Source: Clostridia bacterium
GTDB lineage: Bacteria; Bacillota; Clostridia; Oscillospirales; CAG-272
Length of the DNA stretch: 64,000 bases
Direction: 5' to 3'
NCBI GenBank assembly: GCA_017453255.1
Contig: JAFTKN010000020.1
Coordinates: 12,399-76,398, forward strand
The position numbers and the translations under genes are program-made. Positions 10,821 through 43,900 of this stretch are shown in pieces (position 1 is the first letter of the stretch; each line of letters starts with the position of its first letter). The notes under the pieces were generated by a model. That model had not been told where the DNA came from and did not search any database. It worked only from the letters and a program-made list of their open reading frames with translations.

Positions 10821-12080
10821 ATGAGAAAAGAGAAGGTAATTCAATTCGGTGAGGGTGGCTTTTTACGTGGCTTTGTAGATTGGATGCTACAAAAGGTAAA
10901 CGAAAAAACTGACTTTAATGGTAGCGTGGTAGTTGTTCAGCCTATTGAAAGGGGTATGTGCGACCAGCTTACTAAGCAGGGATGTCGATATACTCATATG
11001 ATAAGAGGTAAAGAGGGCGTTGAGGTTAGCGAAATTGACGTAATTTCGCGATGTGTAAAGCCATATGACGATTTTGATAGCTACATAGCACTTGCCGAAA
11101 ATAAGGATTTTCGCTTTATTGTTTCAAACACAACTGAGGCAGGAATAGCGGTTAATGAGGGTGATAAGCTCACAGACAGACCAGCAAGCTCCTTCCCAGG
11201 TAAGCTGACTCAGCTTTTATATAAGAGATATGAGCTTGGCTTAGGTGGCTTTGTGTTCTTACCCTGCGAGCTAAGTGACGATAATGGAATTGAGCTAAGA
11301 AAATGTATTCTTAAATATGCAGATATGTGGTCACTTGGAGACGGCTTTAAAAAATGGATAAATGAGGAAAACATATTTACCATTACATTGGTTGACCGTA
11401 TAAATACAGGCTATCCTAAAAATGAGGATACAGGAATCGACGATAAAATGCTAAATACATCAGAGTATTTTCATTTGTGGGTAATAGACGGCTACGAGGG
11501 GCTATTTAACGAATTACCCCTTGACAAGTGTGGATTAAACGTAATTTTGACCGATCAAATTGATATGTACCACACAAGAAAGGTGCGTATTTTAAATGGT
11601 GCACATACATCACTTGTTCCCCATGCACTTTTAAGTGGCTATGATACAGTAAAGAGCTGTGTTGATAGCGAGGAAATGCTAAGCCATATTAAAAAATGTG
11701 TATATGACGAGATTATTCCTACTCTTGATTTGCCAACAAATGAGCTTTTAAGCTATGCTGATAGCGTTTTAAATCGTTTTGCAAACCCATATATTAAGCA
11801 TTATCTTTCCTCGATTGCATTAAACTCGGTAAGCAAGTTCAGAGTTAGAGTTTTGCCATCTATCCTTGAATATATTAAGCGCTTTGACAAGGTGCCAAAG
11901 ACACTTGTTTTCTCCTTTGCTCGTTTAATTGAGTTTTACAAAAAGGGCACACCAAACGATGCAGATAGCATAATGGAATTTATGAAAAATGCAAGCGTCA
12001 AGGATATTTTAGCAAACAAAGAGCTTTGGGGACAGGACTTAACCTTCCTTTATGATGAGGTTTCTAAATATGTTGATTAA
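10821..12080 (+). CDS. uxaB: Tagaturonate reductase / altronate oxidoreductase (mannitol dehydrogenase family)
   Basis: 419 aa. The N-terminal Rossmann motif VIQFGEGGFLRGFVDWM is typical of UxaB. It sits in operon context with uxaA and uxaC. Confidence 0.7.
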   Translation: MRKEKVIQFGEGGFLRGFVDWMLQKVNEKTDFNGSVVVVQPIERGMCDQLTKQGCRYTHMIRGKEGVEVSEIDVISRCVKPYDDFDSYIALAENKDFRFIVSNTTEAGIAVNEGDKLTDRPASSFPGKLTQLLYKRYELGLGGFVFLPCELSDDNGIELRKCILKYADMWSLGDGFKKWINEENIFTITLVDRINTGYPKNEDTGIDDKMLNTSEYFHLWVIDGYEGLFNELPLDKCGLNVILTDQIDMYHTRKVRILNGAHTSLVPHALLSGYDTVKSCVDSEEMLSHIKKCVYDEIIPTLDLPTNELLSYADSVLNRFANPYIKHYLSSIALNSVSKFRVRVLPSILEYIKRFDKVPKTLVFSFARLIEFYKKGTPNDADSIMEFMKNASVKDILANKELWGQDLTFLYDEVSKYVD

Positions 12081-28563: not shown

Positions 28564-28575
28564 TCAAGTATATAA

Positions 28576-28606
28576 AGCAGGGGCTTTTATGGCTCCTGTT
28601 TTTTCT
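28576..28606 (+). terminator. Terminator after the GH92 gene; insulates the downstream 8-gene operon
   Basis: CAGGGGC-TTTTATG-GCTCCTG followed by T8. Confidence 0.65.
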
Positions 28607-28723
28607 TTGTATATTTATGCACAAAAAACGAATATTTCAAGCAAAAATACAGAAAATACTTTTAGCAATTTGCACAAAATTGTTGAAAAAGGAAACAAAA
28701 TGTCAAAAAATGGCTTATTGCTA

Positions 28724-28752
28724 TTGAATATAAATATATTATATGATAAAAT
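28724..28752 (+). promoter_or_regulatory. Candidate promoter of the 8-gene operon
   Basis: TTGAAT (28724-28729), 17-nt spacer ending in TGA, TAAAAT (28747-28752). The region is AT-rich, so a chance match is possible. Confidence 0.3.
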
Positions 28753-28843
28753 AAATCTAACAATTTAAAAGGAGTTAAACGGTAAAGCTTTAATTAATTG
28801 TAATCTTATTCAAAGGCGAAATTTTTTATAAAAGGAGAGAAAA

Positions 28844-29545
28844 ATGAAAAAATTTAAAGAATCAAAGTTTATAATTGGCTTTAGTGCGATTTTAGCAATA
28901 ATTTTTGCAGTAATAAGCCTTGTTGTGTTCTTGGTATTGAAGGACCTTAATGCTACCTTCTGGCTTGGATATATTTTCTTAGCCCTTGCCTTCGTGCTTG
29001 CTGAGTGCGTTGTAATCTTCTTATTTAAGAACAAAAAGAAGGATGCTATTTTTCTTGGTATTCCACTTGTAACCTATACGCTTATTTATTTAGGCGTGGC
29101 GTTGGCTTGCTCACTATTATTCATGGTGCTCAAGGACTTTGTTCCATGGCAAGTTTCATTAATAGTTAATATTTTACCGTTTGCTATATTTATAGTTGTT
29201 GCTATATTTGCAATCCTTGCTCGTTCAGTAGTTGAGGAAATCAATGAGAATGTAGCTAAGAAGGTTAGAAATCTTAAGTCACTCGTTGTTGACGTTGACC
29301 TTATGGTTGAAACCTGTCAGGATGACGAGCTTAAGAATAAGCTTAAAAAGCTTTCTGAAACAATTAAATATTCTGACCCTATGTCAAACGATGCAGTAGC
29401 AGACGTTGAGGACAGAATTATAGCTAAGATGGCTGAGCTCCGTGTTTATAATGAAAACGGACAAATTGAGGATGCAACAAAGGCTGTTACAAGTCTTGAA
29501 ATCCTTTATGTAGAAAGAAACAGAAAATTAGCAATTTCAAAATAA
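28844..29545 (+). CDS. Operon gene A: 4-TM membrane protein with a cytoplasmic helical tail of about 95 aa (unknown family)
   Basis: 233 aa. Four hydrophobic helices lie in residues 9-135, then ..RNLKSLVVDVDLMVETCQDDELKNKLKKLSETIKYSDPMSND... RBS AAAGGAGAG. Confidence 0.75.
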   Translation: MKKFKESKFIIGFSAILAIIFAVISLVVFLVLKDLNATFWLGYIFLALAFVLAECVVIFLFKNKKKDAIFLGIPLVTYTLIYLGVALACSLLFMVLKDFVPWQVSLIVNILPFAIFIVVAIFAILARSVVEEINENVAKKVRNLKSLVVDVDLMVETCQDDELKNKLKKLSETIKYSDPMSNDAVADVEDRIIAKMAELRVYNENGQIEDATKAVTSLEILYVERNRKLAISK

Positions 29546-29565
29546 GCACAAAGAGGTAAATACAG

Positions 29566-31560
29566 ATGGCAGTTAATTATGTTGCAAGGCGCTGTTCACA
29601 ATGTGGCGGTGAATTGGAATACATAAAAGAGAGAAAGCTGTATGTATGTATGTACTGTGGTGCTGAATTTGAGCGTAAGGAAGAAAAGCGTGAGGGCATG
29701 TTTGCCCTCAAAAACGTGGTTAGACAGACTATTTTGGAAACCACCTATCGCCGTCTTGACAATGCTCAGAGAAACCTCGTTGAGTGCGAAAAGATTGATG
29801 CAAAATATGTTGGTACACAGATTGCAAAGATAGTTTATCAAATGATAAGGGTTACAACTCCTGGTGCGTGTCTTCCACATGAGGCAAGGGGACTCTTTGA
29901 GCAGATGAAGCGTAGCTATCTTCAATTAAAGGAGGACTATCCTGAAATTTCTGAGGATGAGGAGATTTTGTACGAGGATTTAGAGGAGAGCGATATTTAT
30001 GCTACACTCCTTCTCGTATTTGATTCCTTAGGGGACAAGTCAAGACGTGACTTTGTTCGTAGCCTCATTAATCCACGTGAGGTTTACTCACAGGATGCAA
30101 ATAGCAATCTTCTTACATATGCTCTGAAGAATAGCGACAACGATTTTGTAGATGCAATCATTTCAAACTATAATAATCTCAATGTTAAGCTTGCTATGAC
30201 AGAAATACTTAAAAAGCAGGCAGATGTGCCTACTAAGGCATCAAATGTAGCTAAATTGCTTTCTACAAAGCAGTTTGGAATTGATGACAAGAGATTAATT
30301 GAGGATTATATTGAAAGCTCACAGGACAGTGGAGAAACTAAGGCAGGAATTGCTGCAGCTTCAGTTACTAATGGAATTAACCTAAGCCTTGACATAGTTA
30401 CAAGGAATGTTCTTTCCAAGGTAAATAATGAGCAGGCAAGAGCCTTGATTTCTGCATATTGCACACATAAGCTAAATGATGCAGAGGTGCTTAAGATTTT
30501 AACCTTCACATTTGCTTCACAAAAGGCAGATGCTATGTTGGGTGCAATCGAGTGCCTTGAAAATGGTAATCAATATATTTTCATTCCATCAAAGGTAATT
30601 TCCTCCGTTTTAGACTCCAATCTTAGCGGAAGTGAAAAAAGAGAGGTTTTGGAGAAGGTATATAGCCATAATTTAGAGCAAAAGGCTCAGGAAAATGCCT
30701 TGACAAGCTATCTTTGCTTTAACACAGATAGCGCAGAGGAAAGATATGAGCTTATTCCATTTTTGCTTGAGCACGTGGCTAATATTCCTAACCAAACTGT
30801 TGAGAGCTATGTTTTAAAGTGTGCTCTTGACGTGGAAAGTAAGCCTGAAATCGTGGAAATGATGTTTAATAAGGGGCTTAACCTAAGCTTCTACAAGGAT
30901 TTAGTTACAAAGTATCTAAAGACTAATGTAGATACGCCAGACGTTAAGAGCGAGGTTTTAAGGGTTCTTATTGACGCAGGCTTGAAGCTTGATAGTGATA
31001 CACTTGAGAGCTTTATTTGTCAGCCAAGCGAAAATGATGCAATGAAAATCAGCTTTATTAATAAAATGGTTGAAAACGGCACAGCTATAAGAAACGACTG
31101 CGCAAGCAAGTATCTTGAAAGAATGCCGATTGACAAGTATAATACAGAGCTTTTAGGCTTGCTTTATAATCAAAGAAGCGTGTTTAGCGCTAAGGCTGTT
31201 GAAAATTATCTACTCTATTTTAGAGATGATGAGAAAACAAAGCTTACAAGAGCAAGACTATTTATCGAAAATTGTGTTGGGGATATTGGTGGCTATTATT
31301 GTAGCATTGCACATCTCCAAAACAGAGTGACCTGTAATATTGCTCAAGCCTATATGCTTTTAGCTCCAGATAATGTTGATTTAATTCGTAACGTAATTGA
31401 CTATATGCTCGCAGGTAAGCTTTTGAAGCTTAACGGTGAGGTTATGGTATCAAACGAGAGAATTAAGTTCAAGAAATATGTGGTTGCAAATAAAGGCTCT
31501 ATAGGTGGAAAAACAAATTCGCTTTGTGAGCATTATAAGGTATTTTCACTATTATTTTAA
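29566..31560 (+). CDS. Operon gene B: N-terminal zinc-ribbon protein with a long helical (ankyrin-like?) repeat region (unknown family)
   Basis: 664 aa. CSQCGG..(14)..CMYCG lies at 29593-29658. It is followed by repeated ..L(L/I)..G(L/A).(L/I).. helical modules (MFNKGLNLSF, LIDAGLKLDSD, MVENGTAIRND). No TM segment. Confidence 0.75.
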   Translation: MAVNYVARRCSQCGGELEYIKERKLYVCMYCGAEFERKEEKREGMFALKNVVRQTILETTYRRLDNAQRNLVECEKIDAKYVGTQIAKIVYQMIRVTTPGACLPHEARGLFEQMKRSYLQLKEDYPEISEDEEILYEDLEESDIYATLLLVFDSLGDKSRRDFVRSLINPREVYSQDANSNLLTYALKNSDNDFVDAIISNYNNLNVKLAMTEILKKQADVPTKASNVAKLLSTKQFGIDDKRLIEDYIESSQDSGETKAGIAAASVTNGINLSLDIVTRNVLSKVNNEQARALISAYCTHKLNDAEVLKILTFTFASQKADAMLGAIECLENGNQYIFIPSKVISSVLDSNLSGSEKREVLEKVYSHNLEQKAQENALTSYLCFNTDSAEERYELIPFLLEHVANIPNQTVESYVLKCALDVESKPEIVEMMFNKGLNLSFYKDLVTKYLKTNVDTPDVKSEVLRVLIDAGLKLDSDTLESFICQPSENDAMKISFINKMVENGTAIRNDCASKYLERMPIDKYNTELLGLLYNQRSVFSAKAVENYLLYFRDDEKTKLTRARLFIENCVGDIGGYYCSIAHLQNRVTCNIAQAYMLLAPDNVDLIRNVIDYMLAGKLLKLNGEVMVSNERIKFKKYVVANKGSIGGKTNSLCEHYKVFSLLF

Positions 31561-31578
31561 AACAAAGGAGAACGAGAG

Positions 31579-33339
31579 ATGACTCAGGAAGAGTATAATC
31601 AAGAGGTCAACCGATTACAATCTCTCATAAACGATCTGGAAAACAGGGCAAACAGGCTTATTGTTGAAAACCAACAGCTAACACAGGAGCTTGTTCAGTC
31701 CTTAGCAGACGTTGAGGTTTTGACATCGAAATGCAGACAGCTTGATGACGTAGTCTATGATGAGGTGGATTATTTGTCTGGCGTTGTTGGACAGGCTGAC
31801 CTCGAGGTAAAGCATATCTTTGATGCTTTAAACGAGCTTACAGCACAATTCTTCACCTTTAAGCGTCTTTCTACCGCTTCTAAAAACATCACTCAATATA
31901 CTGACGAGTATTACACAAAGTTCCATTATTATAATGAGCTTAGAAGAATTACTCTCGGCTATGTTATCGGTCTTGATGCTAATATTGTATCAAGCGATGT
32001 AATGAGGAAAAAGGTAGAAAAAGCTTATTTGCAAAACACTGAATACTGGTTAGCTTACTGTATTACTGCCGTTATGCTATGGGCAAGTAATGAAAAAACA
32101 GCTGCTAATCGTGCAATAAGCAAGGCATTATCAATTAATTATTTTAATTCCTGCTTATTCTTCCTTCTTATCAACCTAAGATTTAACAGAATGGACGCTG
32201 CTAAGAAGTGGTATGTAAACTACCTCGACCATGCAGACAGAGATGACTTGGGTGATGAGTGGCAATATCTACTTCAAGCATACTTGTTTGGAGTATTTGG
32301 AGCAGACGAAAAGTTCCAGACTCTTGTAATGAATTGCTTTAAGGATATGGTTAGTCAGCTTGAAATGACAACCGTTGACTTTGCAAAGAAGTTTACAAAG
32401 AGAGCGCTTGAATTTGCTCAGCTTTACCTACATAAAACAAGGAAAGAATATGTTACTATCCGTCGTAACAGCCCAGATTACGAGGATATTATGGACTTGC
32501 TTTCTACTGCTGAGAAAAACGCAGAAATAGCAAAATATTATGACGATTTGACACAGGTTGAGGCTAACGAGGGCGAAAACCTTGCTCAAAGAATCGAAAA
32601 TGTTCTTTATTCCTTGATTAACGACTATGATGATGAGGAATACAAGGTTGTTAAGAACATTAAGCTCAATGAGGCAATAGTTGCTGCAAAGGGCGATATG
32701 GCAGAGGCACAGGCTAAGACTGAAAAGCTATTTGCCGAGAGAGAGGAAAAGAAGAACTTCGGCGACCTTCTAAGAACATGGGCATTCTGTGAGGATGGTC
32801 AAACTGACGTAACAGTAAAAAGATTTTCAATATCCTTCATGAAGGATGCTATCTCAAAGGGATATGAGGAATTTGCTGAGGATTACAGAAAGAACGAGCC
32901 AGATGAGATTAATTTTGAAATCGACGGCTGTCATATGAAATGTAATGAAAATCAGCTTGACAAGGCAGAGAGTGCAATTAATAAGCACTACGATAAAAAC
33001 AAGCTTGCTAATACAATTAAGGACAAGCTTGTGCTTATATTCCTATGTATTACCTTGGGTGGAGCTTTACTCTGCGGTATCGGAGCAATAGTAATTGCTT
33101 GCGCAGGTAACCCAATAGCCATTAGTATTCTATTTGCACTTGGCGCAATCGTGCTTGGTGTAGGTATCTTCTTGATTTGCAGGCGAGTTATTGAGCTGAA
33201 GCAAATGCGTGAGGAAAAGAAGAAAAAGGCGATAGCTATTATGAAGCAGGCACTTGGTGAGCTTGCAGAGTGGCGTCAAGCTTACAAGGAAGCTGACAGC
33301 GAAAATGCAAATCTTATCAAGGTCTTTGAAAAATATTGA
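31579..33339 (+). CDS. Operon gene C: coiled-coil protein with a C-terminal TM hairpin, paralog 1 of 3 (unknown family)
   Basis: 586 aa. N-terminal heptad region (..NRLQSLINDLENRANRLIVENQQLTQELVQ..). Conserved core YWLAYCITAVMLWASNEKTAANRAISKALSINYFNSCLFFLLINLRFNRMDAAKKWY. Two TM helices at about 33030-33185, then the tail ..ALGELAEWRQAYKEA... Confidence 0.8.
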   Translation: MTQEEYNQEVNRLQSLINDLENRANRLIVENQQLTQELVQSLADVEVLTSKCRQLDDVVYDEVDYLSGVVGQADLEVKHIFDALNELTAQFFTFKRLSTASKNITQYTDEYYTKFHYYNELRRITLGYVIGLDANIVSSDVMRKKVEKAYLQNTEYWLAYCITAVMLWASNEKTAANRAISKALSINYFNSCLFFLLINLRFNRMDAAKKWYVNYLDHADRDDLGDEWQYLLQAYLFGVFGADEKFQTLVMNCFKDMVSQLEMTTVDFAKKFTKRALEFAQLYLHKTRKEYVTIRRNSPDYEDIMDLLSTAEKNAEIAKYYDDLTQVEANEGENLAQRIENVLYSLINDYDDEEYKVVKNIKLNEAIVAAKGDMAEAQAKTEKLFAEREEKKNFGDLLRTWAFCEDGQTDVTVKRFSISFMKDAISKGYEEFAEDYRKNEPDEINFEIDGCHMKCNENQLDKAESAINKHYDKNKLANTIKDKLVLIFLCITLGGALLCGIGAIVIACAGNPIAISILFALGAIVLGVGIFLICRRVIELKQMREEKKKKAIAIMKQALGELAEWRQAYKEADSENANLIKVFEKY

Positions 33340-33353
33340 TTGGAGGGTAAAAT

Positions 33354-34973
33354 ATGGCAAACGCATTATATGCCATTAACAGGCTTGACGAAACCATTAA
33401 TTCGTTCAAGTCAAGAGTTGATGTCAAGGTAACAGACGTTGATAACTCCACAGCGAGTATCCGTTCAACCGCTGACAGAATATATGAAAATATTGAGCGC
33501 TTCAAGGTTGATATGCTTCACGGCGAGGAAACACAGATAGCGCACGAGAATATTTTAAGAATTGACCAGATTATCAAGGAGCAGTTTGGTAATCACGAGG
33601 CAATCAGACGTACAGTTTTAGGTATCGTTAAGGACTTCGATATTAACCTCGTACGTAATAGCACAATTCAAGAGCTTTCTGAGGAATTATGGATTACAAG
33701 CTCAAGATATTGGCTATCCTATGCACTTTTAGCAATTACAGCTTGGGTAAACAACTACCCAGAGGTTGCAAAGAACGCCCTTTCCGAATGTGGAAGAAAG
33801 GACGCTATTAAAACAACATTATTCTTCTGCCTTACAAATCTTCGTTTTGGAAGAATGGAGGCAGCAAAGAAATGGTTCTACGAGTATTTCAATACTCTTG
33901 ACCCAACAATGCTTCAGCAGGAAACAGCAATTCTATTGCAATCCTTCTTAAACGGCATTTTCGGTAAGGATAAGGAGCTTGAGGGCGAAATCACAAAGCT
34001 TATTGATAGCTGGATTACAATTATCGAGGAGCAGGACGAGATTTCAGCGCAGCTTGTTGAATCCTATTATACCTATATTCAGAATTTACACCCAGAGTGT
34101 GAATTTAACTATCCAAAGCTACTTAAGCATTGTGCTGGTACAGGCACACTTAAGCAGACTATTACAGACGCATCAAAGTATGAGCTTCTTATAGACTTTG
34201 TAAAGGAGCTTGACGTTGAGGCTGTCGAGCAAACTGATGAAAACTATAAAAACAGAGTTGATGCTATCTTGGCTAAGCTTATCACTAACTATGATGCTGA
34301 CGAGCTTGAGCTTAGAAGACAACAGGCATACTACCGTTGCATAGCTGATAATAAGGGTGACGTTGAGGCTGCTGAGGCTCAGTTCACAGCTATGATGGAG
34401 CTTGAAAACGAGCATTTCAATATCGGTAAGCAAATGGTAAGATGGGCTATTTATGATGATAGCGAAAAGACAGACGTTCAGGTAAGAAAGTTCGGCTTCC
34501 AAAAGACAAAGGGCTGGTTTACCAAGGCTGTTGAAAGCTTCGATTCTGAGCTTGGCGCAAGCGTTCCAACACATTTCGATTTGTCAATCGACACATGGAA
34601 GGGTACAACAGACGGAAACGACGAGGCTGATCAGCACGATAGCATTGAGGCACACTTTAAAAACAACAAGCTACAAAATACAGTAGTTAATAAGTTTAAC
34701 GCAGTTGTTCTTGCAATTTTGGTTATCTCTGCAATAGTTGGAGTAATTATGATTGCAGCAGGTGCTGGCGCATGGGCATTAATCGTAACTGGTGTATGTG
34801 CAATTATTTTAGTAATTAGAGTAATTATTGCATTCAATAAATATCCAAATAGAATTAATGCAGCTAAGAAGGTGCTTAGTGAATGTATAGCAGAAATCGC
34901 AGAATATAGACGTAGCTATGAGGAAAAGCACGCTATGAAGGACGAGCTTTTCTCAATGGTAGAATTTCTTTAA
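33354..34973 (+). CDS. Operon gene D: coiled-coil protein with a C-terminal TM hairpin, paralog 2 of 3
   Basis: 539 aa. Core YWLSYALLAITAWVNNYPEVAKNALSECGRKDAIKTTLFFCLTNLRFGRMEAAKKWF. Two TM helices at about 34700-34850. Tail ..CIAEIAEYRRSYEEK... Confidence 0.8.
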   Translation: MANALYAINRLDETINSFKSRVDVKVTDVDNSTASIRSTADRIYENIERFKVDMLHGEETQIAHENILRIDQIIKEQFGNHEAIRRTVLGIVKDFDINLVRNSTIQELSEELWITSSRYWLSYALLAITAWVNNYPEVAKNALSECGRKDAIKTTLFFCLTNLRFGRMEAAKKWFYEYFNTLDPTMLQQETAILLQSFLNGIFGKDKELEGEITKLIDSWITIIEEQDEISAQLVESYYTYIQNLHPECEFNYPKLLKHCAGTGTLKQTITDASKYELLIDFVKELDVEAVEQTDENYKNRVDAILAKLITNYDADELELRRQQAYYRCIADNKGDVEAAEAQFTAMMELENEHFNIGKQMVRWAIYDDSEKTDVQVRKFGFQKTKGWFTKAVESFDSELGASVPTHFDLSIDTWKGTTDGNDEADQHDSIEAHFKNNKLQNTVVNKFNAVVLAILVISAIVGVIMIAAGAGAWALIVTGVCAIILVIRVIIAFNKYPNRINAAKKVLSECIAEIAEYRRSYEEKHAMKDELFSMVEFL

Positions 34974-34992
34974 TTAGAAAAGGAGAGTTAAT

Positions 34993-35163
34993 ATGAGTAA
35001 CGAAGTAAAGGACCAAGAATTAGACCTTAGCTTTGAGGAAATGATGCAAAACTTTACCTCACCAGCAGCAGAGGGAATGGAAATATCCGACGAGAGATTA
35101 CAGGAAATGAATAAAAAGCTTCCTGAGTGGAGCTTAGAGCCTCCATACAGCTTCCTTAAATGA
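34993..35163 (+). CDS. Operon gene E: 56-aa acidic peptide (absent from the ORF track, which lists nothing shorter than 60 aa)
   Basis: ATG at 34993 lies 7 nt after AAAGGAGAG. Product: MSNEVKDQELDLSFEEMMQNFTSPAAEGMEISDERLQEMNKKLPEWSLEPPYSFLK. Its stop overlaps the start of gene F (AAATGA at 35158-35163). Confidence 0.55.
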   Translation: MSNEVKDQELDLSFEEMMQNFTSPAAEGMEISDERLQEMNKKLPEWSLEPPYSFLK

Positions 35164-35636
35164 TTGCTGTATCTAAGCCAAGTAGCTATAGCGACTGGAT
35201 TCGGGCATTTGAAAATATTAAAAGCTATCCACTAAGTCAAGACTCCTATTATGAGCTTGAGCTGGGAAGGCTTGATACATATTCGTCAATGAGTCACCCC
35301 TTTAATTCTATGCTGACCGATACCATAAACGTGGTTTTGAATAGATGTATAGATAGCTTTTCAAGGGAGCTTGATATGTGCTTAAGCTTTAACGAGATAG
35401 ATAATATTGAGCTTGTCTTTAGTCATTTGAAAACAAACGTGAGAAGAGTATTCTTCTTTGAGCGTCTTGGCTTCCTACCCGATAGCGTAAAAAACGAGCT
35501 TTCGGAAAAAATCAAGGAGCAAATGTCTGCGTTTTGGAATACGGTTGTTAATCATCTTACAAAAGAGGCTATGAACAACCAAATCGGAGCGTTAGAGGAC
35601 ACGTTGTTCCTTATCAAAAGAATTAAATTGTTTTAA
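35160..35636 (+). CDS. Operon gene F: 158-aa soluble protein (unknown family)
   Basis: ATGA overlap with gene E. No TM segment and no motif I recognise. Confidence 0.65.
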   Translation: MIAVSKPSSYSDWIRAFENIKSYPLSQDSYYELELGRLDTYSSMSHPFNSMLTDTINVVLNRCIDSFSRELDMCLSFNEIDNIELVFSHLKTNVRRVFFFERLGFLPDSVKNELSEKIKEQMSAFWNTVVNHLTKEAMNNQIGALEDTLFLIKRIKLF

Positions 35637-35651
35637 GCATAGGTGTATAAA

Positions 35652-37151
35652 ATGGGGAATTATAATTCTACTAAAAAAGAGATAAAAAATTACATATGCG
35701 CAAGAACTCCGCTAATCGTAATTGATTCAAGCGAGAGGGAGAGAGTAGAAAGAATGCTCAAGGAGATATCAAGTGAGCTTAATATCGAGCTTCTTTACTA
35801 CACCGACGAAAAAAAGGCTTGTCACCTAAATGGTGGCTCGTCAAGGGATGTTGACGACCCTTTAGCATTTATATCCCAAACCTTTAGGAAAAATAGAAAT
35901 TCCACCTTTGCCTTCGGAGATATTAAAAGAATAAGCGAGGATAATATTTATAGCCGTGAGGTTCTTAATATTCTCTATTTAGCAAAGGAAACAAATTCCA
36001 CTTTGATTTTAATCACAGCTGATAATGTGTGGTCAAGGCTTGCCTCCTTTGGTATGCTTACTACCCTTGATTATCCTGACGTGGACGAAAGAATACACCA
36101 AATTAATCAATTTGTATCACGCTATCGCTCCAGATTTAAAATAAGCTGGGACGAAACAGATATTCGTATGGCTGCAACTCTTATGAGAGGCTTTACAGAG
36201 ATACAAACAGAAAATATTTTATCAACAACTCTTATTACCAATAACGGCTTAGGTAAGGAAAATTTAGCAGAGCTAACAGCTCAAAAGAGCAAGCTTTATG
36301 GTGCAGTTTCCTGTATCCAAGCAGTAAATGTTCCAAAGGGACTTTGTGCATCAGGACTTGAAAATCTCAAAGGCTGGCTACTCGATAAAAGAAGAATATT
36401 CTTCGCATCTGATAGTGAGCTTGAAAGCAGAGATTTAACCACTCCTAAGGGTATTTTGCTTGCGGGCATACCTGGCTGTGGAAAATCCTTATCTGCAAAA
36501 ATGGTCGCTAAGGAATGGAATTTACCATTGTTTAGATTTGATATCGGCTCAGTTTATGACAAGTGGGTTGGTGAGAGTGAAAAGAAAATGAAGGAAGCGC
36601 TTCAATTTATTGATAATGTTGCGCCCTGCGTTTTATGGGTTGATGAAATAGAGAAGGCGCTTTCCACCTCCGATTCAGGAAATGATACAGGAAAGAGAGT
36701 TTTAGGACAATTTCTGTTCTGGCTTCAGGAGTCTAAGAGTAGAGTATTTTTAGTTGCAACAGCCAACGATATATCCAAGCTCCCCTTTGAGCTATTTAGA
36801 AAGGGACGTTTTTCTGAAATGTTCTTCATAGATTTGCCTAACAAGAGGGAGAGAGAGGACACTATCAAGTATTACGTGAACAAATCGCTTCATAAAACCT
36901 TACCAGACGAGGTAATAAACAGCCTTGTTGAAATATCTGAGGGCTATTCCTATTCAGATATTGAATATAGCGTTAAGGAGTGCGCACAGCACGCTTTAAC
37001 CGAGGGTGATGAGGCTATAAATTCACAGCTTATATTAGAAAAATTCAAGAGAATTGTACCTATTGCAAAGGCTAATCCTGAAATGGTAGATAGGATTAGG
37101 GCTTGGGGAACCGAGCATGCAGTAGCAGCATCAAAACAGGAGGAAAAATGA
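35652..37151 (+). CDS. Operon gene G: AAA+ ATPase (classic AAA clade) with an N-terminal domain of about 250 aa lacking Walker motifs
   Basis: Walker A GIPGCGKS (36465-36488). Walker B VLWVDEIE (36630-36653). ..VFLVATANDISKLPFELFRKGRFSEMFFIDLP.. covers sensor-1 and the SRH/arginine-finger region. I prefer the ATG at 35652 behind AGGTG over the GTG at 35643. Confidence 0.85.
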   Translation: MGNYNSTKKEIKNYICARTPLIVIDSSERERVERMLKEISSELNIELLYYTDEKKACHLNGGSSRDVDDPLAFISQTFRKNRNSTFAFGDIKRISEDNIYSREVLNILYLAKETNSTLILITADNVWSRLASFGMLTTLDYPDVDERIHQINQFVSRYRSRFKISWDETDIRMAATLMRGFTEIQTENILSTTLITNNGLGKENLAELTAQKSKLYGAVSCIQAVNVPKGLCASGLENLKGWLLDKRRIFFASDSELESRDLTTPKGILLAGIPGCGKSLSAKMVAKEWNLPLFRFDIGSVYDKWVGESEKKMKEALQFIDNVAPCVLWVDEIEKALSTSDSGNDTGKRVLGQFLFWLQESKSRVFLVATANDISKLPFELFRKGRFSEMFFIDLPNKREREDTIKYYVNKSLHKTLPDEVINSLVEISEGYSYSDIEYSVKECAQHALTEGDEAINSQLILEKFKRIVPIAKANPEMVDRIRAWGTEHAVAASKQEEK

Positions 37152-38884
37152 GTCTTGCAGAATTACAAAATTATGCAAATGCGCTACAAAATCAGGTAAG
37201 ACAGCTCGAAAATGAAAACAGAGAGCTTTTACAAGAGCTTTCCGTTGTTGAGCGTGGAGTTTTAGGCGCTATGAACGAGCTTGAGGCGTTTAACTCCAAA
37301 ATTAGAAATACCTTTGACTATTGCGCAAACTCCATGGCATATTCTCACGACAAGGCAGTACAGTCAATAGTTGTGCAGGGCGAGATAGAGGAGCTTTATA
37401 AGAGATTTAAGCATATAGAGCTTGCTAACAAGAAGATTCGTGCCTGCAACAATAAAAAATATTACGATTTTGCAAACTATAGAGCTGTAAGAAAGATTGT
37501 TCAAGGTATAATGGATAACTTAGACCTTAACATGATAAGCAACCGTACAATTATGAAGGCGGTTGAGGTACAGCATTTGCAAACACCTGATTATTGGCTA
37601 ACCTGTGCATTAATTGCCGTAATGGCATGGAAAAGCGATGATAAAAGACTTGCTGATAGAGCCTTAGCAGAGGCTATCAAGCTTGATAAGAAGAATACAT
37701 CACTATTCTTTATGCTCTTTAATCTTCGTGTAGATAGGGAGGATGCGGCTCTAAAATGGTTTGAGTCCTTCCAGGAATGTGAAATGAAGGGTAGCGACGA
37801 GGATACATTCCTTATGCTCTTTACCCTTATTACAAAAACAATAGCAGATAGAGTTGATGACGGAGCGCAGAATGCTGCTCTTAAGTTCATTAAGAGAATT
37901 TACGATGAGTGTGTAGGCTCTGAGAGCTATGACGAAGGTGCACTCGTTGATAAAATTGAGAGCTTCTATGCTCAAATGATGCCTCATGACGCACTCGAAT
38001 ATCCACTACTTCAAAAGCACCTAACTGACTACAGTCAGCTAACATATCAAATGATGCTTGCTAAGAATAATATTTCTATTCTTGAGTATCTTTTGAAGCT
38101 TGAGGACGTTAAGGATAAGAGAAATAGCTATATTAAGCAATATATCGACCAGCTTGTATTAAGACCTAACGCAACTGAAAAGAGCGTTTATGATGAGATT
38201 GAGTATAACGAATACATAATCAAATATCAGGGCTATGTTGATCAAGCGAAGGAAGCTTATGACGAAATGTGCGCAAAGCGTGAAAGCGAGATTAAGCTTG
38301 TTGATAGCATGGTTGATTGGATTCAAGACGGCGAAAACTCTGAAAAGGTAAACGATTTAGTTAAATTAAATATGTTTACTATGGTTAAGCCACTTGAGGA
38401 AAAGGCTATTGAGAATTATACTGAGGCTTATAGAGCAAGAGTTAATCATAAGCATGGCGTAAAAATCAACGACTATAAAACAACAGTTGATTTCAAGAAT
38501 CAGACAAGCGAAACTCAAAAGGTAAAGGACTTCTATGAGGCTAAAAAGCAGGCAGAATTAAAGACAGTAAAGAATACACCAATTATTCTTTCCTTTATAA
38601 TCGCTGTTTTAACCTGTGCAGGAGCAATCGCTCTACAAATTGCAGTAGGGGGTATGTGGCTCTGGATCTTAGGCTTTACTGGCGTAAGTGCATTAGTAGG
38701 AGTAATTTATATCTTTAAAAACAAGAACAGACGTGGAACTATTATACTAAATTGCGAAAAGGACGCAAACGTAACGGGCGCAATTTTAGAAAAGCTATTT
38801 GTTCAGTATGCTGAATACGAAAAGGAGTATGAGGAATACGACGGATACGCTGAAAGAATAGTAAACGAGCTTGCAAAGATTTAA
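37148..38884 (+). CDS. Operon gene H: coiled-coil protein with a C-terminal TM hairpin, paralog 3 of 3
   Basis: 578 aa from the ATG at 37148, which overlaps the AAA+ stop (ATGA) behind AGGAGG. N-terminus ..LQNQVRQLENENRELLQELS... Core YWLTCALIAVMAWKSDDKRLADRALAEAIKLDKKNTSLFFMLFNLRVDREDAALKWF. TM hairpin at about 38578-38715. Tail ..FVQYAEYEKEYEEY... Confidence 0.8.
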   Translation: MSLAELQNYANALQNQVRQLENENRELLQELSVVERGVLGAMNELEAFNSKIRNTFDYCANSMAYSHDKAVQSIVVQGEIEELYKRFKHIELANKKIRACNNKKYYDFANYRAVRKIVQGIMDNLDLNMISNRTIMKAVEVQHLQTPDYWLTCALIAVMAWKSDDKRLADRALAEAIKLDKKNTSLFFMLFNLRVDREDAALKWFESFQECEMKGSDEDTFLMLFTLITKTIADRVDDGAQNAALKFIKRIYDECVGSESYDEGALVDKIESFYAQMMPHDALEYPLLQKHLTDYSQLTYQMMLAKNNISILEYLLKLEDVKDKRNSYIKQYIDQLVLRPNATEKSVYDEIEYNEYIIKYQGYVDQAKEAYDEMCAKRESEIKLVDSMVDWIQDGENSEKVNDLVKLNMFTMVKPLEEKAIENYTEAYRARVNHKHGVKINDYKTTVDFKNQTSETQKVKDFYEAKKQAELKTVKNTPIILSFIIAVLTCAGAIALQIAVGGMWLWILGFTGVSALVGVIYIFKNKNRRGTIILNCEKDANVTGAILEKLFVQYAEYEKEYEEYDGYAERIVNELAKI

Positions 38885-38934: not shown

Positions 38935-39468
38935 TTATTTTTTGCAATAAAAATCATTCATCATTTGCTCTGCGTCGATATCATTTAATGAATCATTATA
39001 CTGACTTACTCTTAGCTTAATCTCGTTAATTATTTTTATTCTTTGTTTTCTTGAAAATCCAGCAATCAAAATTTTCTTTCTTTCCCTGCTTTTTAGTAAC
39101 AGTTCAATGTTTGTTCTTAACAGCTTTGTAAGTTTGATTTCTCCTTTTTCGAGAATATTATATTTTTGAATTGGGAAATCATCAGTTTTTCCTGACACAA
39201 TTCTTATGTCGATTATATCTTCGTATTTAACATTAATACAATGTTGAATAGCATTAATCCCATTAAGCTTTCTTTTTTTCTTTAGACCAGGAACAAATAC
39301 GCTATCTTTAGTAAAAGTTATTCGTCCATAATAAATAAAAATAATAATAATCGCAACAAAGAATGCAACACCTATCATCGTTATAGCCATTTCAAAATAC
39401 AGTTCTTTTACCAATCCGATTGTAGCCATTACAATCAAAAAAGCGAGCATGCTGTAAATAAAAAGCAT
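38935..39468 (-). CDS. 2-TM immunity-like protein, paralog 3 (orphan); possibly 5'-truncated by a homopolymer frameshift
   Basis: 177 aa. N-terminal TM pair plus a C-terminal domain ..FSRKQRIKIINEIKLRVSQYNDSLNDID.., homologous to the 39770 and 40396 products. An upstream ATG at 39512-39514 is followed by an A8 tract and is out of frame by one base. Confidence 0.65.
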   Translation of the reverse strand: MLFIYSMLAFLIVMATIGLVKELYFEMAITMIGVAFFVAIIIIFIYYGRITFTKDSVFVPGLKKKRKLNGINAIQHCINVKYEDIIDIRIVSGKTDDFPIQKYNILEKGEIKLTKLLRTNIELLLKSRERKKILIAGFSRKQRIKIINEIKLRVSQYNDSLNDIDAEQMMNDFYCKK

Positions 39469-39534
39469 TCCACAAACATACCATTTATTAAAGTAAAAAA
39501 TAGTTTTTTTTCATTACAAACAACCTTCAAAATT

Positions 39535-39703
39535 TAATTACCATACGCATCAGAAAAACCACTTTGCAGAGTTTCAAATAAGCCATCAAAAAACGTCTTT
39601 TATATATTGTTGAATTACCCAAAAGCTACTAAAGAGCACTTTGGAAAACCCCTACCCACGCATCATATACATATTTTACCATAGTGGTTCCTTTTGTGTC
39701 AAG
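39535..39703 (-). pseudogene. Vestigial Rhs core / toxin-tip fragment upstream of the orphan immunity gene
   Basis: 39655-39703 aligns with 41750-41798 inside the Rhs gene: 27 nt are identical, then about two-thirds match. It encodes ..LDTKGTTMVKYVYDAW.., versus ..LDSEGNTVVKYVYDAWGNH.. in the intact gene. The frame then hits a stop after 8 codons. Confidence 0.6.
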
Positions 39704-39769
39704 TTTGCTATTGAATTTTAAAAAGCGTTGTGATAAACTAAACATATAATTATACAAGGGGGATAACAA

Positions 39770-40366
39770 ATGGAGAAAAGGGTTTTTCGCGCTTGGGAAG
39801 ATACAAGGGTTAAAATTTTTCTGATAGTTACAATTTTTTTAATTCCATTTTTACTTGTATCAAACGCAATGCTTTTTAAAAGTGAATATCAATATCCTGC
39901 TTGGAAAGTAATATATGGAATATGTTCCATTTTTATTTATATAGTTTTTTTAAGCTACTGGGCATGTTGCTTGATATATAAAGTAACGCTCTTACCAGAA
40001 GGAGTTTTATACAAACAAAATACCTTGCAAATTATACCATATAGCCAAATAAGCAAAATCAGATTTATTTATAGCAAAAGAGATGAAAATGGTAATTTTA
40101 TTAAGCCTACCCACATACGCGATAGTAATTATTTAACACCAAAAGCATATACAGAATTTACATTAAATGACGGCAAAATATATAGAATAAGAATTGAAGG
40201 AATGACCAAAAAGCTTACAATTAAAATACTTGAAGAAATAAAGGCTCGCTCCATTGCTTATAACGATGCCCTAAAGGATTTTGATCCAATTAAAACTGTC
40301 AAAAAATCAAAGTTTACCTTTAAAGAACCTAAAGAAAGCTTTATAATTCCAAAAAATTTGCATTAA
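39770..40366 (+). CDS. 2-TM immunity-like protein, paralog 2 (opposite strand)
   Basis: 198 aa. TM pair plus ..GMTKKLTIKILEEIKARSIAYNDALKDFD... It is convergent with paralog 1. Confidence 0.65.
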   Translation: MEKRVFRAWEDTRVKIFLIVTIFLIPFLLVSNAMLFKSEYQYPAWKVIYGICSIFIYIVFLSYWACCLIYKVTLLPEGVLYKQNTLQIIPYSQISKIRFIYSKRDENGNFIKPTHIRDSNYLTPKAYTEFTLNDGKIYRIRIEGMTKKLTIKILEEIKARSIAYNDALKDFDPIKTVKKSKFTFKEPKESFIIPKNLH

Positions 40367-40397
40367 GAAAAGACCTCTTTTAGAGGTCTTTCTTTTT
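40367..40397. terminator. Bidirectional terminator between the convergent immunity paralogs
   Basis: AAGACCTCT-TTT-AGAGGTCTT: a 9-bp stem flanked by an A-run and a T-run. Confidence 0.75.
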
Positions 40398-40965
40398 ATT
40401 TCAATATAACTTTACCATCAATTTGAGGCATTAAAAGCTCTCTAACTAATTGGTTATAGCTTTTTGTTAAATCTGTCCTTCTGTTTATTTGGCTTATTAT
40501 TTTTTCTCTTTGCTTGTCAGAGTAGGGAGAAATATCAAACCACATTGAATCTTCATTCTTTAGAATAAATTCTAAATAAAGATTTATATTTTTAACTTCC
40601 TTATCATTTTCGTCCAAAATGACTTTTTTGTCAGCGTCTTTGTACGAAAAAACTAACTTAACATATTCAATATTAAAATAGAGAATTTTGCATTTATTAA
40701 ACCGATTTTTGGAATTTCCATTATTCACTTTTTGAAGAAATTCTATTTGCTCCTTATTAAATGTTATTTTGATTGCTTTTAAGTAAGTACGTATTGTTGG
40801 AACAATCGGCACAATGAAAAACATAATAGAAAAAATTAAAGCAAATAAGTAAAATTCTTTTTCAATTAAAAAAAGGATAAACGGAAAAAACATAAAGAAT
40901 AAATACGAACAAGCAATAAACATTTTTGATGTTGACATATCTATAGGTCTAAACTTTTTCCCCAT
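40396..40965 (-). CDS. 2-TM immunity-like protein, paralog 1 (cognate position, directly downstream of the Rhs toxin)
   Basis: 189 aa. It starts 11 nt after the Rhs stop. TM pair plus ..YSDKQREKIISQINRRTDLTKSYNQLV... Confidence 0.7.
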   Translation of the reverse strand: MGKKFRPIDMSTSKMFIACSYLFFMFFPFILFLIEKEFYLFALIFSIMFFIVPIVPTIRTYLKAIKITFNKEQIEFLQKVNNGNSKNRFNKCKILYFNIEYVKLVFSYKDADKKVILDENDKEVKNINLYLEFILKNEDSMWFDISPYSDKQREKIISQINRRTDLTKSYNQLVRELLMPQIDGKVILK

Positions 40966-40976
40966 ATAACCACTCC

Positions 40977-43900
40977 TTAATCAACTAATTGTTGCGTAAG
41001 CTTTTCAAAGCCAAATAAAGAATAATAAAATTCTGCAAGACTTGCACCTGCACCATCTTCCAAGCTATCCATTAAGTTTTTACCGAATTGTTTTAGATTT
41101 TTGTTAAACAAAATGGTGTCCAAATCCGAAGAACTACCATCACTGAAGGCAAAGGAAAAGATTCCTGCAAATCCAGATATAATCAATATTTCTTTTGCTG
41201 TGTGATTTTTACCATCAATCCAATTTTCAAATTGCATACTGCCAGCCTTGGTTAAAAAGCCTGATACAAACGCACCCGTTTTATTTAAAAACGAGTTTCC
41301 TAAAAAGCCTAAACCTGCACTGAAAGCTCCACCAAGAGCTCCGCCAACAATACTACCTAAAAATCCACTCCAAGACCAATTCCACTCTCCTGTTATCACA
41401 AAAGAAATAACAGTGCTAGCAGTGTACGAAATTGCACTAGAAATCGCTCCAATGACAGCTCCAACAAGAATTGAAATCAAAAAATTTCCACTTGGATCTA
41501 CATACATAACAGGGTTATTGTTACAGTACGCGTATAGGTTAGTACCACCGATAGTTTCTGGGTCAAGATAGCTAATATCATCAGGTGAGATGAATCTGCA
41601 AATTGTTGGGTCGTAATATCTTGCGTTCAAGTAATATAGCTTTGTTTCAGTATCGTAGTAGTATGAACGATATCTGATTGGGTTAATGCGACCAATATGT
41701 GCTTCATCGGTTATTGCAGCACCATTTGCGTCAAGCACACTATGATTTCCCCACGCATCATATACATATTTTACCACAGTATTACCCTCGGAGTCAAGAA
41801 TTTCGATTACATTACCGAAAATATCCTTGCGATAGAAATATTTTTCTCCCAGATATTCAAAGGCATAAACAGAGGAGTTATTATCGTAGAAAAATTTAAT
41901 TCCGTTTGATTGTCTGAATATCTGATTTTGCATATTGTATTCGTAAGTAATTTCAGAATCTCCTGTCTTTGAAATTCGTCTTCCAAAAGCGTCGTATTCA
42001 AAGGTTATATCACCATAAGATGTAAGCTTTCTTCCTGAGCCCCATTCAAGTGTCTTTCCCTTGTATGCCGTTGGATTGCCTAAGAGGTCATATGTAATTT
42101 CATTTCCGTCAAAAGAAATCAGATTTCCAACCATATCATAACTATAGTTGAATATTTTTCGATATGCGTTACTTTCGTTTAACTCTCGCTCTGATTCAAA
42201 TGAAAAACCATATAATTTTTTTGAAGCAATATTACCCTTGTTATCATAAGAATAGAAAGCTGTAGCATTTAGCCCCCTATTATTTTCTCTAACAAGTCTA
42301 CCGAGTGTATCATATTTATGCTCAACTGTAAGTACACCATTTTCATATATTTTTGTGATATTACCCATTTTATCATATTTATATCTGATGTTGTCACCTA
42401 AAATTAAAGCTTCGCCATTCTTTTTGCTATATTGAATCGCTACAGGTAATTTAGTAGCATGGTCGCCATTTTTAAGATATGTAATATCCTCTGAGTATAT
42501 ATCTTCAACATAATTAGAAATAGTCTTTCCTCTATTTCTTCCTAAGCAGTCAGTTTTTAGCTTATGTGTTGTACCATCGTTTACATAAGTATATTCCTTT
42601 AGATTGCCTAATATATCGTAGGTATATTGATTATACATAGCTCTTGGATTTGTTGTACTGTTAATTGTTTCACAGGAAATTTTTCCGTTAGCAGTATAGG
42701 TATATGTCTGGCTATATATTTCGTTTAACTCACCATCTTCTAAATACTCGTATAATCTTTCAGTTGAAAGCTTTCCACAACTATCATATGTGTACTTAAT
42801 GATATTAACATTTACACCATTTTCTTGTTGAATAATAGAGGTTACTTTACCATTTGAAATGACTTTGATTAACTTTTTAGAGCTTTCACCCTTTATGATT
42901 TCTTTTGTTTCTGTTGTTGGTGAAACCTCATGCTTTTCGATACTGCCGTCTGCATAGGTTACAGTTGTCTTTTCGGTATTTGTTGTATTGTCCTTTTCGT
43001 ATAGGTATTGTGCATATTCATTACCATTTATTGTAACAGAGGTGACTCTATCCTTGTAATCATATGTGTACTCGTATGTATTGCTATCACTAATAACCTT
43101 AGTTAAAAGACCATTTGTATATATTTTTTGAATACTGTTTTCCTCTCCGTCTGCTGTGCTTTGAGTAATTGCAGAGTTGCCATTCATATTGTCAAAGCCA
43201 AAGGAATATCTGCTTCCGTTAGGGTATTTTGTGCTACAAACTGTATTTGTTCCATCAAAATATTCATACATTGTACGATTTTTTCCTAAGAGGTCAAATT
43301 CAGCAATTTTTTGTCCCTTTTCGTTTACCTCAATTTCCTCATAATACTTTGATGATGGATCAAGGGAATTATATGTAATCTTTTTTATCTCGAAGCCGTT
43401 TTTATCGTAAACATGCTCCTCAATATTAATTCCGTTTGCTTTTTCCTCACCCTCTGTATAGCTTTGCTTCTTTAATAGCTGTCCTCTGTCGTTATATTCG
43501 AGCAATACAATATGATTAAGTTCCTTTATTGGACTTGATATATCAGTATATATCTTTTCGTTTGTTACTACTTTTGATACTTGTCCCTTTTCGTTATATG
43601 TGTAGGTTTTGACTATATCCTGCTTATAACCATTGTCAGTATCACTAATTTTCTTATTTGTAACAGCTTCGCTTTTTACTCTGTTAAAGGCATCGAGGGT
43701 TACGGTGCTTTGACACATATTCTCAAACGTCACCGTTTCTCCGTACAAGCCATTTTCCTGAACAGAGGAAACGTTATATTTTCCCATTCCTACATGTTCA
43801 TATTTTTCTGCCTTTGTGTACTTTCCGTTTTCTAACACGCAATGCTCGGTTATTCTTCCGTCTGCATCAAAGGTGTAAGCTTCGACAATTTGTTGCTCTT

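Follow-up and report, generated by a model that had tools for sequence, protein, structure and literature searches.

Three genes, C, D and H, of an eight-gene operon in the 64,000-nucleotide stretch of Clostridia bacterium DNA analysed here (the window, from contig JAFTKN010000020.1) encode paralogs of a previously undescribed membrane protein family. The family has a confidently predicted fold that is unmatched among known structures, and it is triplicated in a conserved 8–12-gene system that includes an AAA+ ATPase, the product of gene G. The reading that we favour, at a probability of about 0.4, is that a single complex in the cytoplasmic membrane, remodelled by G, is built from C, D and H as non-redundant subunits, with D-E-F-G as the ancestral core and a role in conflict or defence suggested by the locations of a related single-copy cassette. 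Both the hetero-oligomerisation and the function are suggested by paralogy, co-retention and genomic context. The family is probably the mark of a machine, so far uncharacterised, that acts on the membrane and possibly against phages.

Architecture of C, D and H and their operon

A sequence-only reading of the window had proposed that the C, D and H proteins align over their whole length and represent a triplication within a family that it did not recognise; the comparisons support both proposals and indicate that the triplication is ancient. BLASTP aligns C with D at E = 5e-51, with 25% identity over 582 columns, and the C-H and D-H pairs, also ~ 25% identical, at E = 1e-35 and 5e-33, respectively. 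Comparison of the ortholog profiles by hhalign yields a probability of 100% and E values of 1e-45 to 1e-63. The all-against-all hhalign comparison of the ortholog families identified no further related gene pair in the operon; B/Y and F/Z, where Y and Z are optional genes described below, were thereby ruled out as additional paralog pairs.

The three proteins share a common layout, comprising a heptad-rich helix of ~ 100–130 residues, a helical domain that opens with the YWL...KW core, a Gly-rich hairpin of two transmembrane helices and an AE..[YW] tail helix. The heptad-rich N-terminus, the core, the two transmembrane helices and the tail had been singled out in the sequence-only reading, and each was recovered. 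The N-terminal helices show hydrophobic enrichment at heptad positions a and d with z = 3.5–4.6 relative to shuffled sequences, and the helix of D falls short of those of C and H by ~ 35–45 residues. The core (residues 156–212 of C, 119–175 of D and 149–205 of H) is the best-conserved stretch of the family. R122, W211 and E354 (numbered as in C) do not vary among 132 diverse members, and A100, G127, E147, Y156, W157, L158, W168, A179, R204, G372 and A377 are at least 90% conserved. The adjacent transmembrane helices near the C-terminus occupy an uncharged, Gly/Ala-rich stretch of 41–51 residues in each protein (C 484–534, D 448–488, H 478–523), with 14% Gly and 13% Ala. The C-terminal flank of the hairpin is basic and is followed by a tail of 50–60 residues, which contains the conserved segments AEWRQAYKE in C, AEYRRSYEE in D and AEYEKEYEE in H. 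Every C-like protein has AE..[DE][FYW]R in its tail helix or, in the window, AE[YW]R/E..Y.E.

The structure of C was predicted with AlphaFold2 from the 132-sequence alignment, with a predicted local distance difference test score (pLDDT) of 94.6 and a predicted TM-score (pTM) of 0.78. Residues 3–134 of the model form a single helix, with pLDDT of 78–98 in 10-residue blocks. An all-helical domain (residues 139–438), a β-hairpin (444–455) and helices at 460–481 precede a helical hairpin (483–508 and 512–535) with a 3-residue turn, and the second transmembrane helix continues unbroken to residue 585. The conserved domain modelled alone (residues 100–460) is a compact globule with pLDDT of 95.4 and pTM of 0.91. 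Foldseek searches with full-length C against the Protein Data Bank (PDB) and BFVD, and with the conserved domain against the PDB, returned no match at E < 0.001; a pLDDT of ~ 95 together with the lack of a match to a known fold suggests that the fold is probably both real and new. The best matches of full-length C are the pore and pre-pore structures of AhlB, SmhB and MakA (E = 0.013, probability 0.87), which align with TM-scores of 0.14–0.26 and a root-mean-square deviation (RMSD) of ~ 17 Å, and these matches disappear once only the conserved domain is queried. The best matches of the domain are the TPR proteins MamA, PilW, OGT and NlpI, over ~ 175 residues, with probabilities of 0.66–0.92, E ≥ 0.3 and RMSD of 9–19 Å. 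The likeness is confined in the model to ~ 3 hairpins, the first of the domain, and Pfam identifies no TPR in C, D or H. As modelled, the core of the three proteins is partly TPR-like, is not a canonical TPR array and is otherwise without a solved relative. None of the top 50 Foldseek PDB matches of either C model is an ESCRT-III, PspA or Vipp1 chain.

The sequence databases agree with the fold searches. C, D and H have nothing above threshold in Pfam, NCBIfam, PADLOC, PHROGs or the PDB sequences, and the database names seen for the homologs are all 'hypothetical protein'. Pfam, NCBIfam, PADLOC and PHROGs recognise, among all eight operon proteins, only the AAA domain of G and a zinc ribbon in B. 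Sub-threshold SLATT and DUF2207_C matches fall on the transmembrane hairpin of C, D and H and are probably compositional. No SLATT domain was identified above cut-off: D matches SLATT_1 at E = 0.032 (14.2 bits against a cut-off of 41), gene A matches SLATT_4 at E = 0.011 (15.6 bits against 55), and C and H have no match. The Pfam models Snf7 and PspA_IM30 give no match at E ≤ 0.1 in the three proteins, and the C/D/H profile retrieves no PspA, Vipp1 or CHMP from the PDB sequences; profiles of C/D/H, the N-domain of G, F and the cassette protein I (described below) likewise retrieve no match there. PADLOC-DB v2.0.0 contains no credible match at E ≤ 0.1 to A, B, C, D, E, F or H, the matches of B being weak, zinc-ribbon-type and at most 14 bits. 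The single-copy C-like, F and I proteins have none at E ≤ 0.01 except a marginal PglZ match of a Comamonas I-like protein (E = 6.6e-4, 16 bits). This screening by sequence covers the defence systems of PADLOC v2 (2023), not those published later. A full-text literature search found no description of the family or of the cassette.

The features of the locus are as follows.

28844–38884, + strand, operon A–H, eight co-directional genes
28574–28602, + strand, terminator-like hairpin 3' of the GH92 gene (consensus scan only, no evidence of function)
28683–28752, + strand, promoter-like sites ahead of gene A (consensus scan only, no evidence of function)
28844–29545, + strand, gene A, 233 residues, which opens the operon here (S absent)
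29566–31560, + strand, gene B, 664 residues
31579–33339, + strand, paralog C, 586 residues; conserved helical domain at residues 135–440, core at nucleotides 32044–32214, transmembrane hairpin at 33028–33180, tail AEWRQAYKE at 33265–33291
33354–34973, + strand, paralog D, 539 residues; core at nucleotides 33708–33878, transmembrane hairpin at 34695–34817, tail AEYRRSYEE at 34899–34925
34993–35163, + strand, gene E, 56 residues, acidic; C-terminal motif LPEWSLEPPYSFLK at nucleotides 35119–35160
35160–35636, + strand, gene F, 158 residues
35652–37151, + strand, gene G, 499 residues, tandem AAA+ ATPase; Walker A at nucleotides 36465–36488, pore loop at 36561–36581, Walker B at 36630–36653
37148–38884, + strand, paralog H, 578 residues; core at nucleotides 37592–37762, transmembrane hairpin at 38579–38716, tail AEYEKEYEE at 38810–38836

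ATGA overlaps join E to F and G to H, and the other gaps are 14–20 nucleotides long, which indicates a single operon. C, D and H lie on the + strand at the positions given in the sequence-only reading; its interval began at C, and the operon begins upstream at A (28844), followed by B. The coupling of H to the stop codon of the AAA+ gene, which that reading had also noted, is seen in the overlap of the H ATG at 37148 with the G stop codon at 37149–37151, with a GGAGG at 37140–37144, 4 nucleotides before the ATG. The start of H is most likely this ATG, which gives 578 residues, and not TTG 37103, and that of G is most likely ATG 35652 (499 residues) and not GTG 35643, the mechanical open reading frame starts being too long; both match the gene calls in a relative whose C is 87% identical.

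G is a bona fide classic-clade AAA+ protein by its sequence motifs. Its C-terminal half matches PF00004 at 1e-29 with 104 bits (cut-off 21.2), and the nearest PDB sequences are the D2 rings of VAT, Cdc48, p97 and NSF (9e-45 to 1e-36), with VAT and Cdc48 at 9e-45 to 3e-37 and NSF at 1e-36. The Walker A (GIPGCGKS), aromatic pore loop (KWVGESE), Walker B (VLWVDEIE), sensor-1 (ATAN) and Arg-finger (RKGRF) motifs are intact. The N-terminal ~ 250 residues align to the protein's own AAA module, lack a Walker A (hhalign probability 74%, E = 2.9e-5) and match no PDB sequence; the self-alignment indicates a tandem AAA+ protein whose first domain is degenerate and which has neither an MIT-type nor a double-psi-barrel N-domain. 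As a full-length type, G corresponds to phrog_8638, a family of unknown function (2e-86 here, 1e-105 for a copy in a satellite phage). The AAA module matches the IetA profiles of PADLOC at 7e-29 here and 2e-34 in the satellite copy, a match of the generic AAA domain only, and G scores 92 bits against the CdvC model (cut-off 650) and 79.7 bits against NCBIfam IteA_antiphage (cut-off 510). Classic-clade AAA+ unfoldases thread polypeptide, and given its intact motifs G should do the same.

The other partners are mostly without recognisable domains. Gene A encodes ~ 4 transmembrane helices, as judged by hydropathy, and a helical tail on the cytoplasmic side that bears a conserved ETIKYSDPM motif; all its database matches are sub-threshold (SLATT_4 as above, and DUF). 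Gene B, present in every locus with upstream sequence, begins with a CxxC...CxxCG zinc ribbon (Pfam A2L_zn_ribbon, 2.4e-5), beyond which neither a recognisable domain nor conserved catalytic-type residues appear in its conservation profile. The small protein encoded after the C-like gene, E in the window, terminates in every case in [LF]PxW[DSN]hxP and then basic or hydrophobic residues; instances are KLPEWSLEPPYSFLK (window), GLPSWDVVPPQIMVRRKKKK (Blautia) and ALPAWDLLPATPFIRRVK (Comamonas). Gene F encodes a small helical protein, has a conserved N-terminal P.TY.EW motif, evolves fast, has just 2 word-index homologs and has no Pfam or PDB match. E, F and G accompany C-like proteins in both the expanded and the single-copy systems; the sequence-only reading had noted neither the universality of E and F nor the single-copy form.

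The expanded operon and the single-copy cassette

The distribution of the family was surveyed by a pattern-limited scan of a 185,579-species collection, which yielded 96 confirmed stretches, and 80 species loci of the expanded system were fetched. Its carriers include Oscillospiraceae, Lachnospiraceae, Ruminococcus, Christensenellaceae, Hungatella hathewayi, Pseudoflavonifractor, Anaerolinea, Bifidobacterium, Eggerthellaceae and Bacilli, and the 80 loci are without exception from monoderms (Clostridia, Bacilli, Anaerolineae, Bifidobacterium and Eggerthellaceae). The gene order is fixed as S-A-B-[X-Y-Z]-C-D-E-F-G-H. C, D and H occur together in that order in 72 of the 80 loci, the remaining 8 ending at contig ends, and none of the 72 complete loci has lost, duplicated or reordered any of the three, which argues that they are non-redundant. 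Their lengths are nearly constant over the loci, at ~ 582 (C), 533 (D) and 571 (H) residues. A neighbour-joining tree of 132 sequences resolves four pure clades, C (29), D (16), H (34) and the single-copy type (53), with D closest to the single-copy type. Co-retention together with pure clades is the pattern that would be expected of distinct subunits of one assembly.

The first gene, S, encodes a YdjI-like SPFH protein (Band_7_1, 2e-33) with double zinc ribbons (for example, locus L001, 5953–7206) and opens 54 of the 54 other expanded loci with enough upstream sequence; A directly follows it in 67 loci. By tblastn S is absent from the window, including the region 28563–28844 upstream of A. 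The 87% relative (L101/L102) carries an S-less operon at the same GH3/GH92...GH43 position, so that the absence of S is a lineage-specific loss, with the rest of the operon intact. X-Y-Z is an optional insert between B and C (for example, L003, 3023–8206; also L006, L010 and L028). X, a HerA/FtsK/VirD4-like ATPase of ~ 900 residues (mad8 3e-16, CedD 6e-17), occurs in 26 of 67 loci but not in the window; Y has 660–1130 residues with an acidic low-complexity N-terminus, and Z has 158–388 residues. No other gene family recurs in the flanks of the expanded loci. The 148 nearest flanking proteins, from 61 loci of as many species, are ordinary metabolic and housekeeping genes, and the only repeated theme is that of extra zinc-ribbon proteins, which occur 7 times. 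Peptidase_M48 (an HtpX/Ste24-type membrane protease) occurs twice among the 148 and overlaps the start of the cassette in L104 (428–1303). The M48 and zinc-ribbon neighbours may be loose associations. The window and L001 show no synteny at E < 1e-20.

A smaller system was found by tblastn of plasmids and phages, followed by contig look-ups. This cassette has 4–5 genes, encoding a C-like protein of ~ 570 residues, a small or zinc-ribbon protein with the E motif, an F-like protein, a G-type ATPase and, at either end, protein I of ~ 160 residues; it has no SPFH gene. It resides on Komagataeibacter plasmids of 26 and 38 kb, beside IS3 and a RelE/ParE pair, on a Comamonas megaplasmid, in the Streptococcus satellite phage Javan368 (L085, accession number MK448457) and in Fusobacterium. 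In Blautia it lies between ilvC/LysR and VanZ/leuA genes, once adjoining a transposase. On one contig it stands beside DarT-Macro (DarTG), an ISL3 transposase and an RVT_1 reverse-transcriptase gene, and cassettes beside a DDE transposase were also seen. The Streptococcus and Blautia copies are 75% identical, which points to recent transfer. Single-copy proteins score best against the D profile; this preference and the tree suggest that D-E-F-G is the ancestral core and that C and H are added copies. The eight-gene operon would then be an expanded descendant of the mobile single-copy cassette of 4–5 genes, in which the C-like protein presumably works as a homo-oligomer.

Clustering at 50% identity gives ~ 780 clusters that match the family; of the top 150, 55 belong to the single-copy group. 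The single-copy cassette is more diverse than the expanded system and is abundant: the copy in the satellite is matched by at least 3,020 proteins clustered at 90%, and one Blautia single-copy protein is listed in ~ 11,000 of the collection's assembly blocks. In a set of 50,697 phage records the cassette turned up in one satellite only. In Javan368 an unannotated small open reading frame between the C-like and F-like genes (11395–11585) ends in EGLPSWDIVPPQLLVRRKRQK, an instance of the E motif, so the deposited annotation lacks a component of the system. Protein I (L088, 14380–14886; L085, 13775–14257; L086, 9540–10025; L093, 1106–1576) is absent from the expanded system, and nothing in Pfam or the PDB matches it; C101, E108, H110, H121, Y144 and E148 (KCYLGxPYEVHTLD...IIEHY...FIEVY) are among its invariant residues, and by this pattern it could be an enzyme or a metal-binding effector. 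A Ser/Thr protein kinase of 518 residues replaces F between the E-like and AAA+ genes of L098 (12217–13773), and HEAT-kinase and PP2C genes lie just upstream of the cassette in L096.

Downstream of the operon, the window contains a cluster at 38935–45497 with a gene for an RHS/YD-repeat toxin of 1506 residues (40977–45497, - strand). It is flanked by genes for three small proteins with two transmembrane helices (38935–39468, - strand; 39770–40366, + strand; 40396–40965, - strand), which are 26–27% identical, the first two matching by BLASTP at E = 3e-9; their sequences suggest an immunity or orphan-immunity array. Compared with L101, in which one HTH_3 gene separates H from GH43, the whole cluster is an insertion. 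The remaining neighbourhood comprises GH31, GH3, GH92 and GH43 glycoside hydrolases, a CNNM/CorC transporter and a β-propeller protein. An open reading frame of 666 residues at 50163–52163 (- strand) has no Pfam match at E ≤ 0.001, and neither tRNA genes nor Rfam families were identified in the window.

Proposed mechanism and rival explanations

In the mechanism that we propose, the C, D and H subunits would oligomerise via their heptad helices and Gly-zipper-like hairpins, plausibly with a stoichiometry that is a multiple of three, which could suit a hexameric G ring. A three-stranded coiled coil on six transmembrane helices, the example offered in the sequence-only reading, would be one possible form; the helix of D is clearly shorter than the other two. 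In the helical domain, the conserved groove with R122, W211 and E354 would receive a peptide, for instance the E motif. Both this motif and that of the tail are conserved across phyla, and both stand out as candidates for contacting the TPR-like domain as a peptide in its groove and for being engaged by the ATPase. G, probably recruited by F, would thread E or an exposed subunit tail and so switch the complex between an assembled or closed and a disassembled or open state, and the output would be an altered permeability or shape of the membrane. A role in conflict or defence is narrowly favoured on account of where the single-copy cassette lives, namely on plasmids, in a satellite and in the neighbourhood of DarTG.

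Several observations weigh against the defence role, which is weakly supported for the expanded system. The 148 flanking genes of the expanded loci, from 61 species, are not enriched in integrases, transposases or defence genes, several contexts of the single-copy cassette are not defence islands, and pattern scans of IMG/VR found no phage-borne copies. The PADLOC match is limited to the generic AAA domain of G (IetA). The near-invariant subunit lengths are more like those of a machine than of an arms-race sensor, and the SPFH and zinc-ribbon protein S that opens 54 of 54 other expanded loci points to membrane maintenance. Both the hetero-oligomers and the threading substrate of G are putative.

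Housekeeping flanks, invariant lengths and a YdjI-like SPFH gene in first place make membrane maintenance a strong rival. Here C, D and H would be scaffolds or adaptors of a maintenance, remodelling or quality-control machine and not of an immune system, with the SPFH protein as organiser and turnover by the Cdc48-like ATPase. SPFH and zinc-ribbon proteins go with PspA and archaeal Vps4-type systems (PMC10936438, PMC11237479), several paralogous helical membrane-associated subunits beside a classic-clade AAA+ protein form the pattern of ESCRT-III/Vps4, and the operon keeps the same GH92/GH43 position in the 87% relative. However, that relative and the window both lack S with the remainder of the operon intact, and the single-copy cassette, which is without an SPFH gene, is the cargo of plasmids and a satellite. 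The failure of the Foldseek and Pfam searches to identify ESCRT-III, PspA or Vipp1 and the patchy, rare distribution (the 96 stretches among 185,579 species, from a pattern-limited scan) also speak against it, and we consider this explanation possible but somewhat doubtful.

Two further alternatives concern the paralogs and their output. C, D and H could be parallel, independent homo-oligomers, for example sensors or effectors of different specificity, that share one ATPase. Single-copy relatives must act without paralogs, the three proteins have diverged to ~ 25% identity, and the helix of D is shorter, as such independence would allow. Independent modules of conflict systems usually vary in copy number, whereas the 72 complete loci show no loss, duplication or reordering and the lengths stay near constant, which renders the idea improbable. 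A macromolecule translocation or secretion apparatus of monoderms, with C, D and H as the channel and with G and the optional X energising transport, is the least probable of the explanations considered and a distinctly remote one. It would fit the monoderm origin of all 80 expanded loci, the HerA/FtsK/VirD4-like X between B and C, and the RHS toxin cluster that adjoins the operon in the window. But X is optional and missing from the window, the RHS cluster is an insertion without counterpart in the 87% relative, the flanks contain no recurrent substrate-like or secretion-signal genes, and single-copy cassettes occur in the diderms Comamonas, Komagataeibacter and Fusobacterium.

Returning to the complex of non-redundant subunits remodelled by G, a broader proposal, which we put forward tentatively and hold to be rather unlikely as a whole, is that C, D and H with E, F and G constitute a new class of ATP-driven membrane machine. 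It would be a gated assembly of glycine-zipper hairpins controlled by an unfoldase, existing as a mobile homo-oligomer, likely in abortive infection or defence, and as a hetero-trimer-based form of 9–12 genes in gut and rumen monoderms, and it would be unrelated to ESCRT-III/PspA, SPFH cages and known pore formers. Apart from the ATPase, the universal components have neither a name nor a known fold. As an immune or abortive-infection effector, the system would add a membrane mechanism driven by a Cdc48-like unfoldase; as a maintenance machine, it would be a non-ESCRT counterpart of the SPFH/AAA+ theme in Gram-positive gut bacteria. In either case the fixed C-D-H triplication would represent a natural experiment in the passage from a homo-oligomer to an obligate hetero-oligomer.

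Comparison with known systems

The closest parallels in gene content are ESCRT-III/Vps4 (CdvB/CdvC) and PspA/Vipp1, in which paralogous long-helix membrane subunits are likewise encoded beside a classic-clade AAA+ protein. An SPFH and zinc-ribbon protein, as found in most expanded loci, also occurs in pspA-ydjGHI of B. subtilis (YdjI) and in the archaeal 'Meth_adaptin' Vps4 loci (PMC10936438, PMC11237479). In contrast to ESCRT-III and PspA, C, D and H are integral proteins of ~ 580 residues with two transmembrane helices, a globular helical domain and no ESCRT-III hairpin fold, and G differs from Vps4 in having a degenerate AAA D1 in place of an MIT domain. The nearest published observation is that bacterial Vps4-like ATPases adjoin an unrelated 'TPR + 6TM' protein (PMC11237479), which does not fit a family with two transmembrane helices.

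The resemblance of C, D and H to the tripartite α-pore-forming toxins of the ClyA family (AhlABC, SmhABC and MakA) is superficial: these too consist of three diverged paralogs that work together, each with helices of great length and a hydrophobic helical hairpin for entry into the membrane. However, C, D and H lack a signal peptide, having no N-terminal hydrophobic segment, their transmembrane hairpins are constitutive, and, with an AAA+ protein as partner, they face the cytoplasm; their central domain is unrelated and the Foldseek matches are not significant. The proposal that they are secreted soluble toxins was rejected for lack of a signal segment and because the operon partners (AAA+, zinc ribbon) are cytoplasmic.

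Defence-type systems offer partial likenesses. The AAA module of G matches the IetA profiles of IetAS (Gao_Iet), and the single-copy cassette resides on mobile elements, but no IetS-like protease is encoded in or beside the operon and the partners are unrelated. SLATT-type effectors combine a hairpin of two transmembrane helices followed by a cytoplasmic helix with an NTPase-containing operon, as seen here, although the SLATT matches are sub-threshold only. The SNARE/α-SNAP/NSF system is related by analogy only, through a heptad helix with a membrane anchor, an α-solenoid and a tandem AAA+ protein with one inactive ring; in C, D and H these non-ATPase parts are fused in one chain, with no SNAP or SNARE match by structure or sequence.

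LapB/YciM-FtsH and HflK/C-FtsH share a transmembrane anchor, TPR-like hairpins, a zinc-ribbon module and a classic-clade AAA+ protein at the inner membrane face, whereas G lacks a protease domain and the sequences are unrelated. By analogy, the system encoded in the window would work most like those that pair an AAA+ protein with a multi-paralog membrane scaffold, namely ESCRT-III/Vps4, PspA-YdjI and HflKC/LapB-FtsH.

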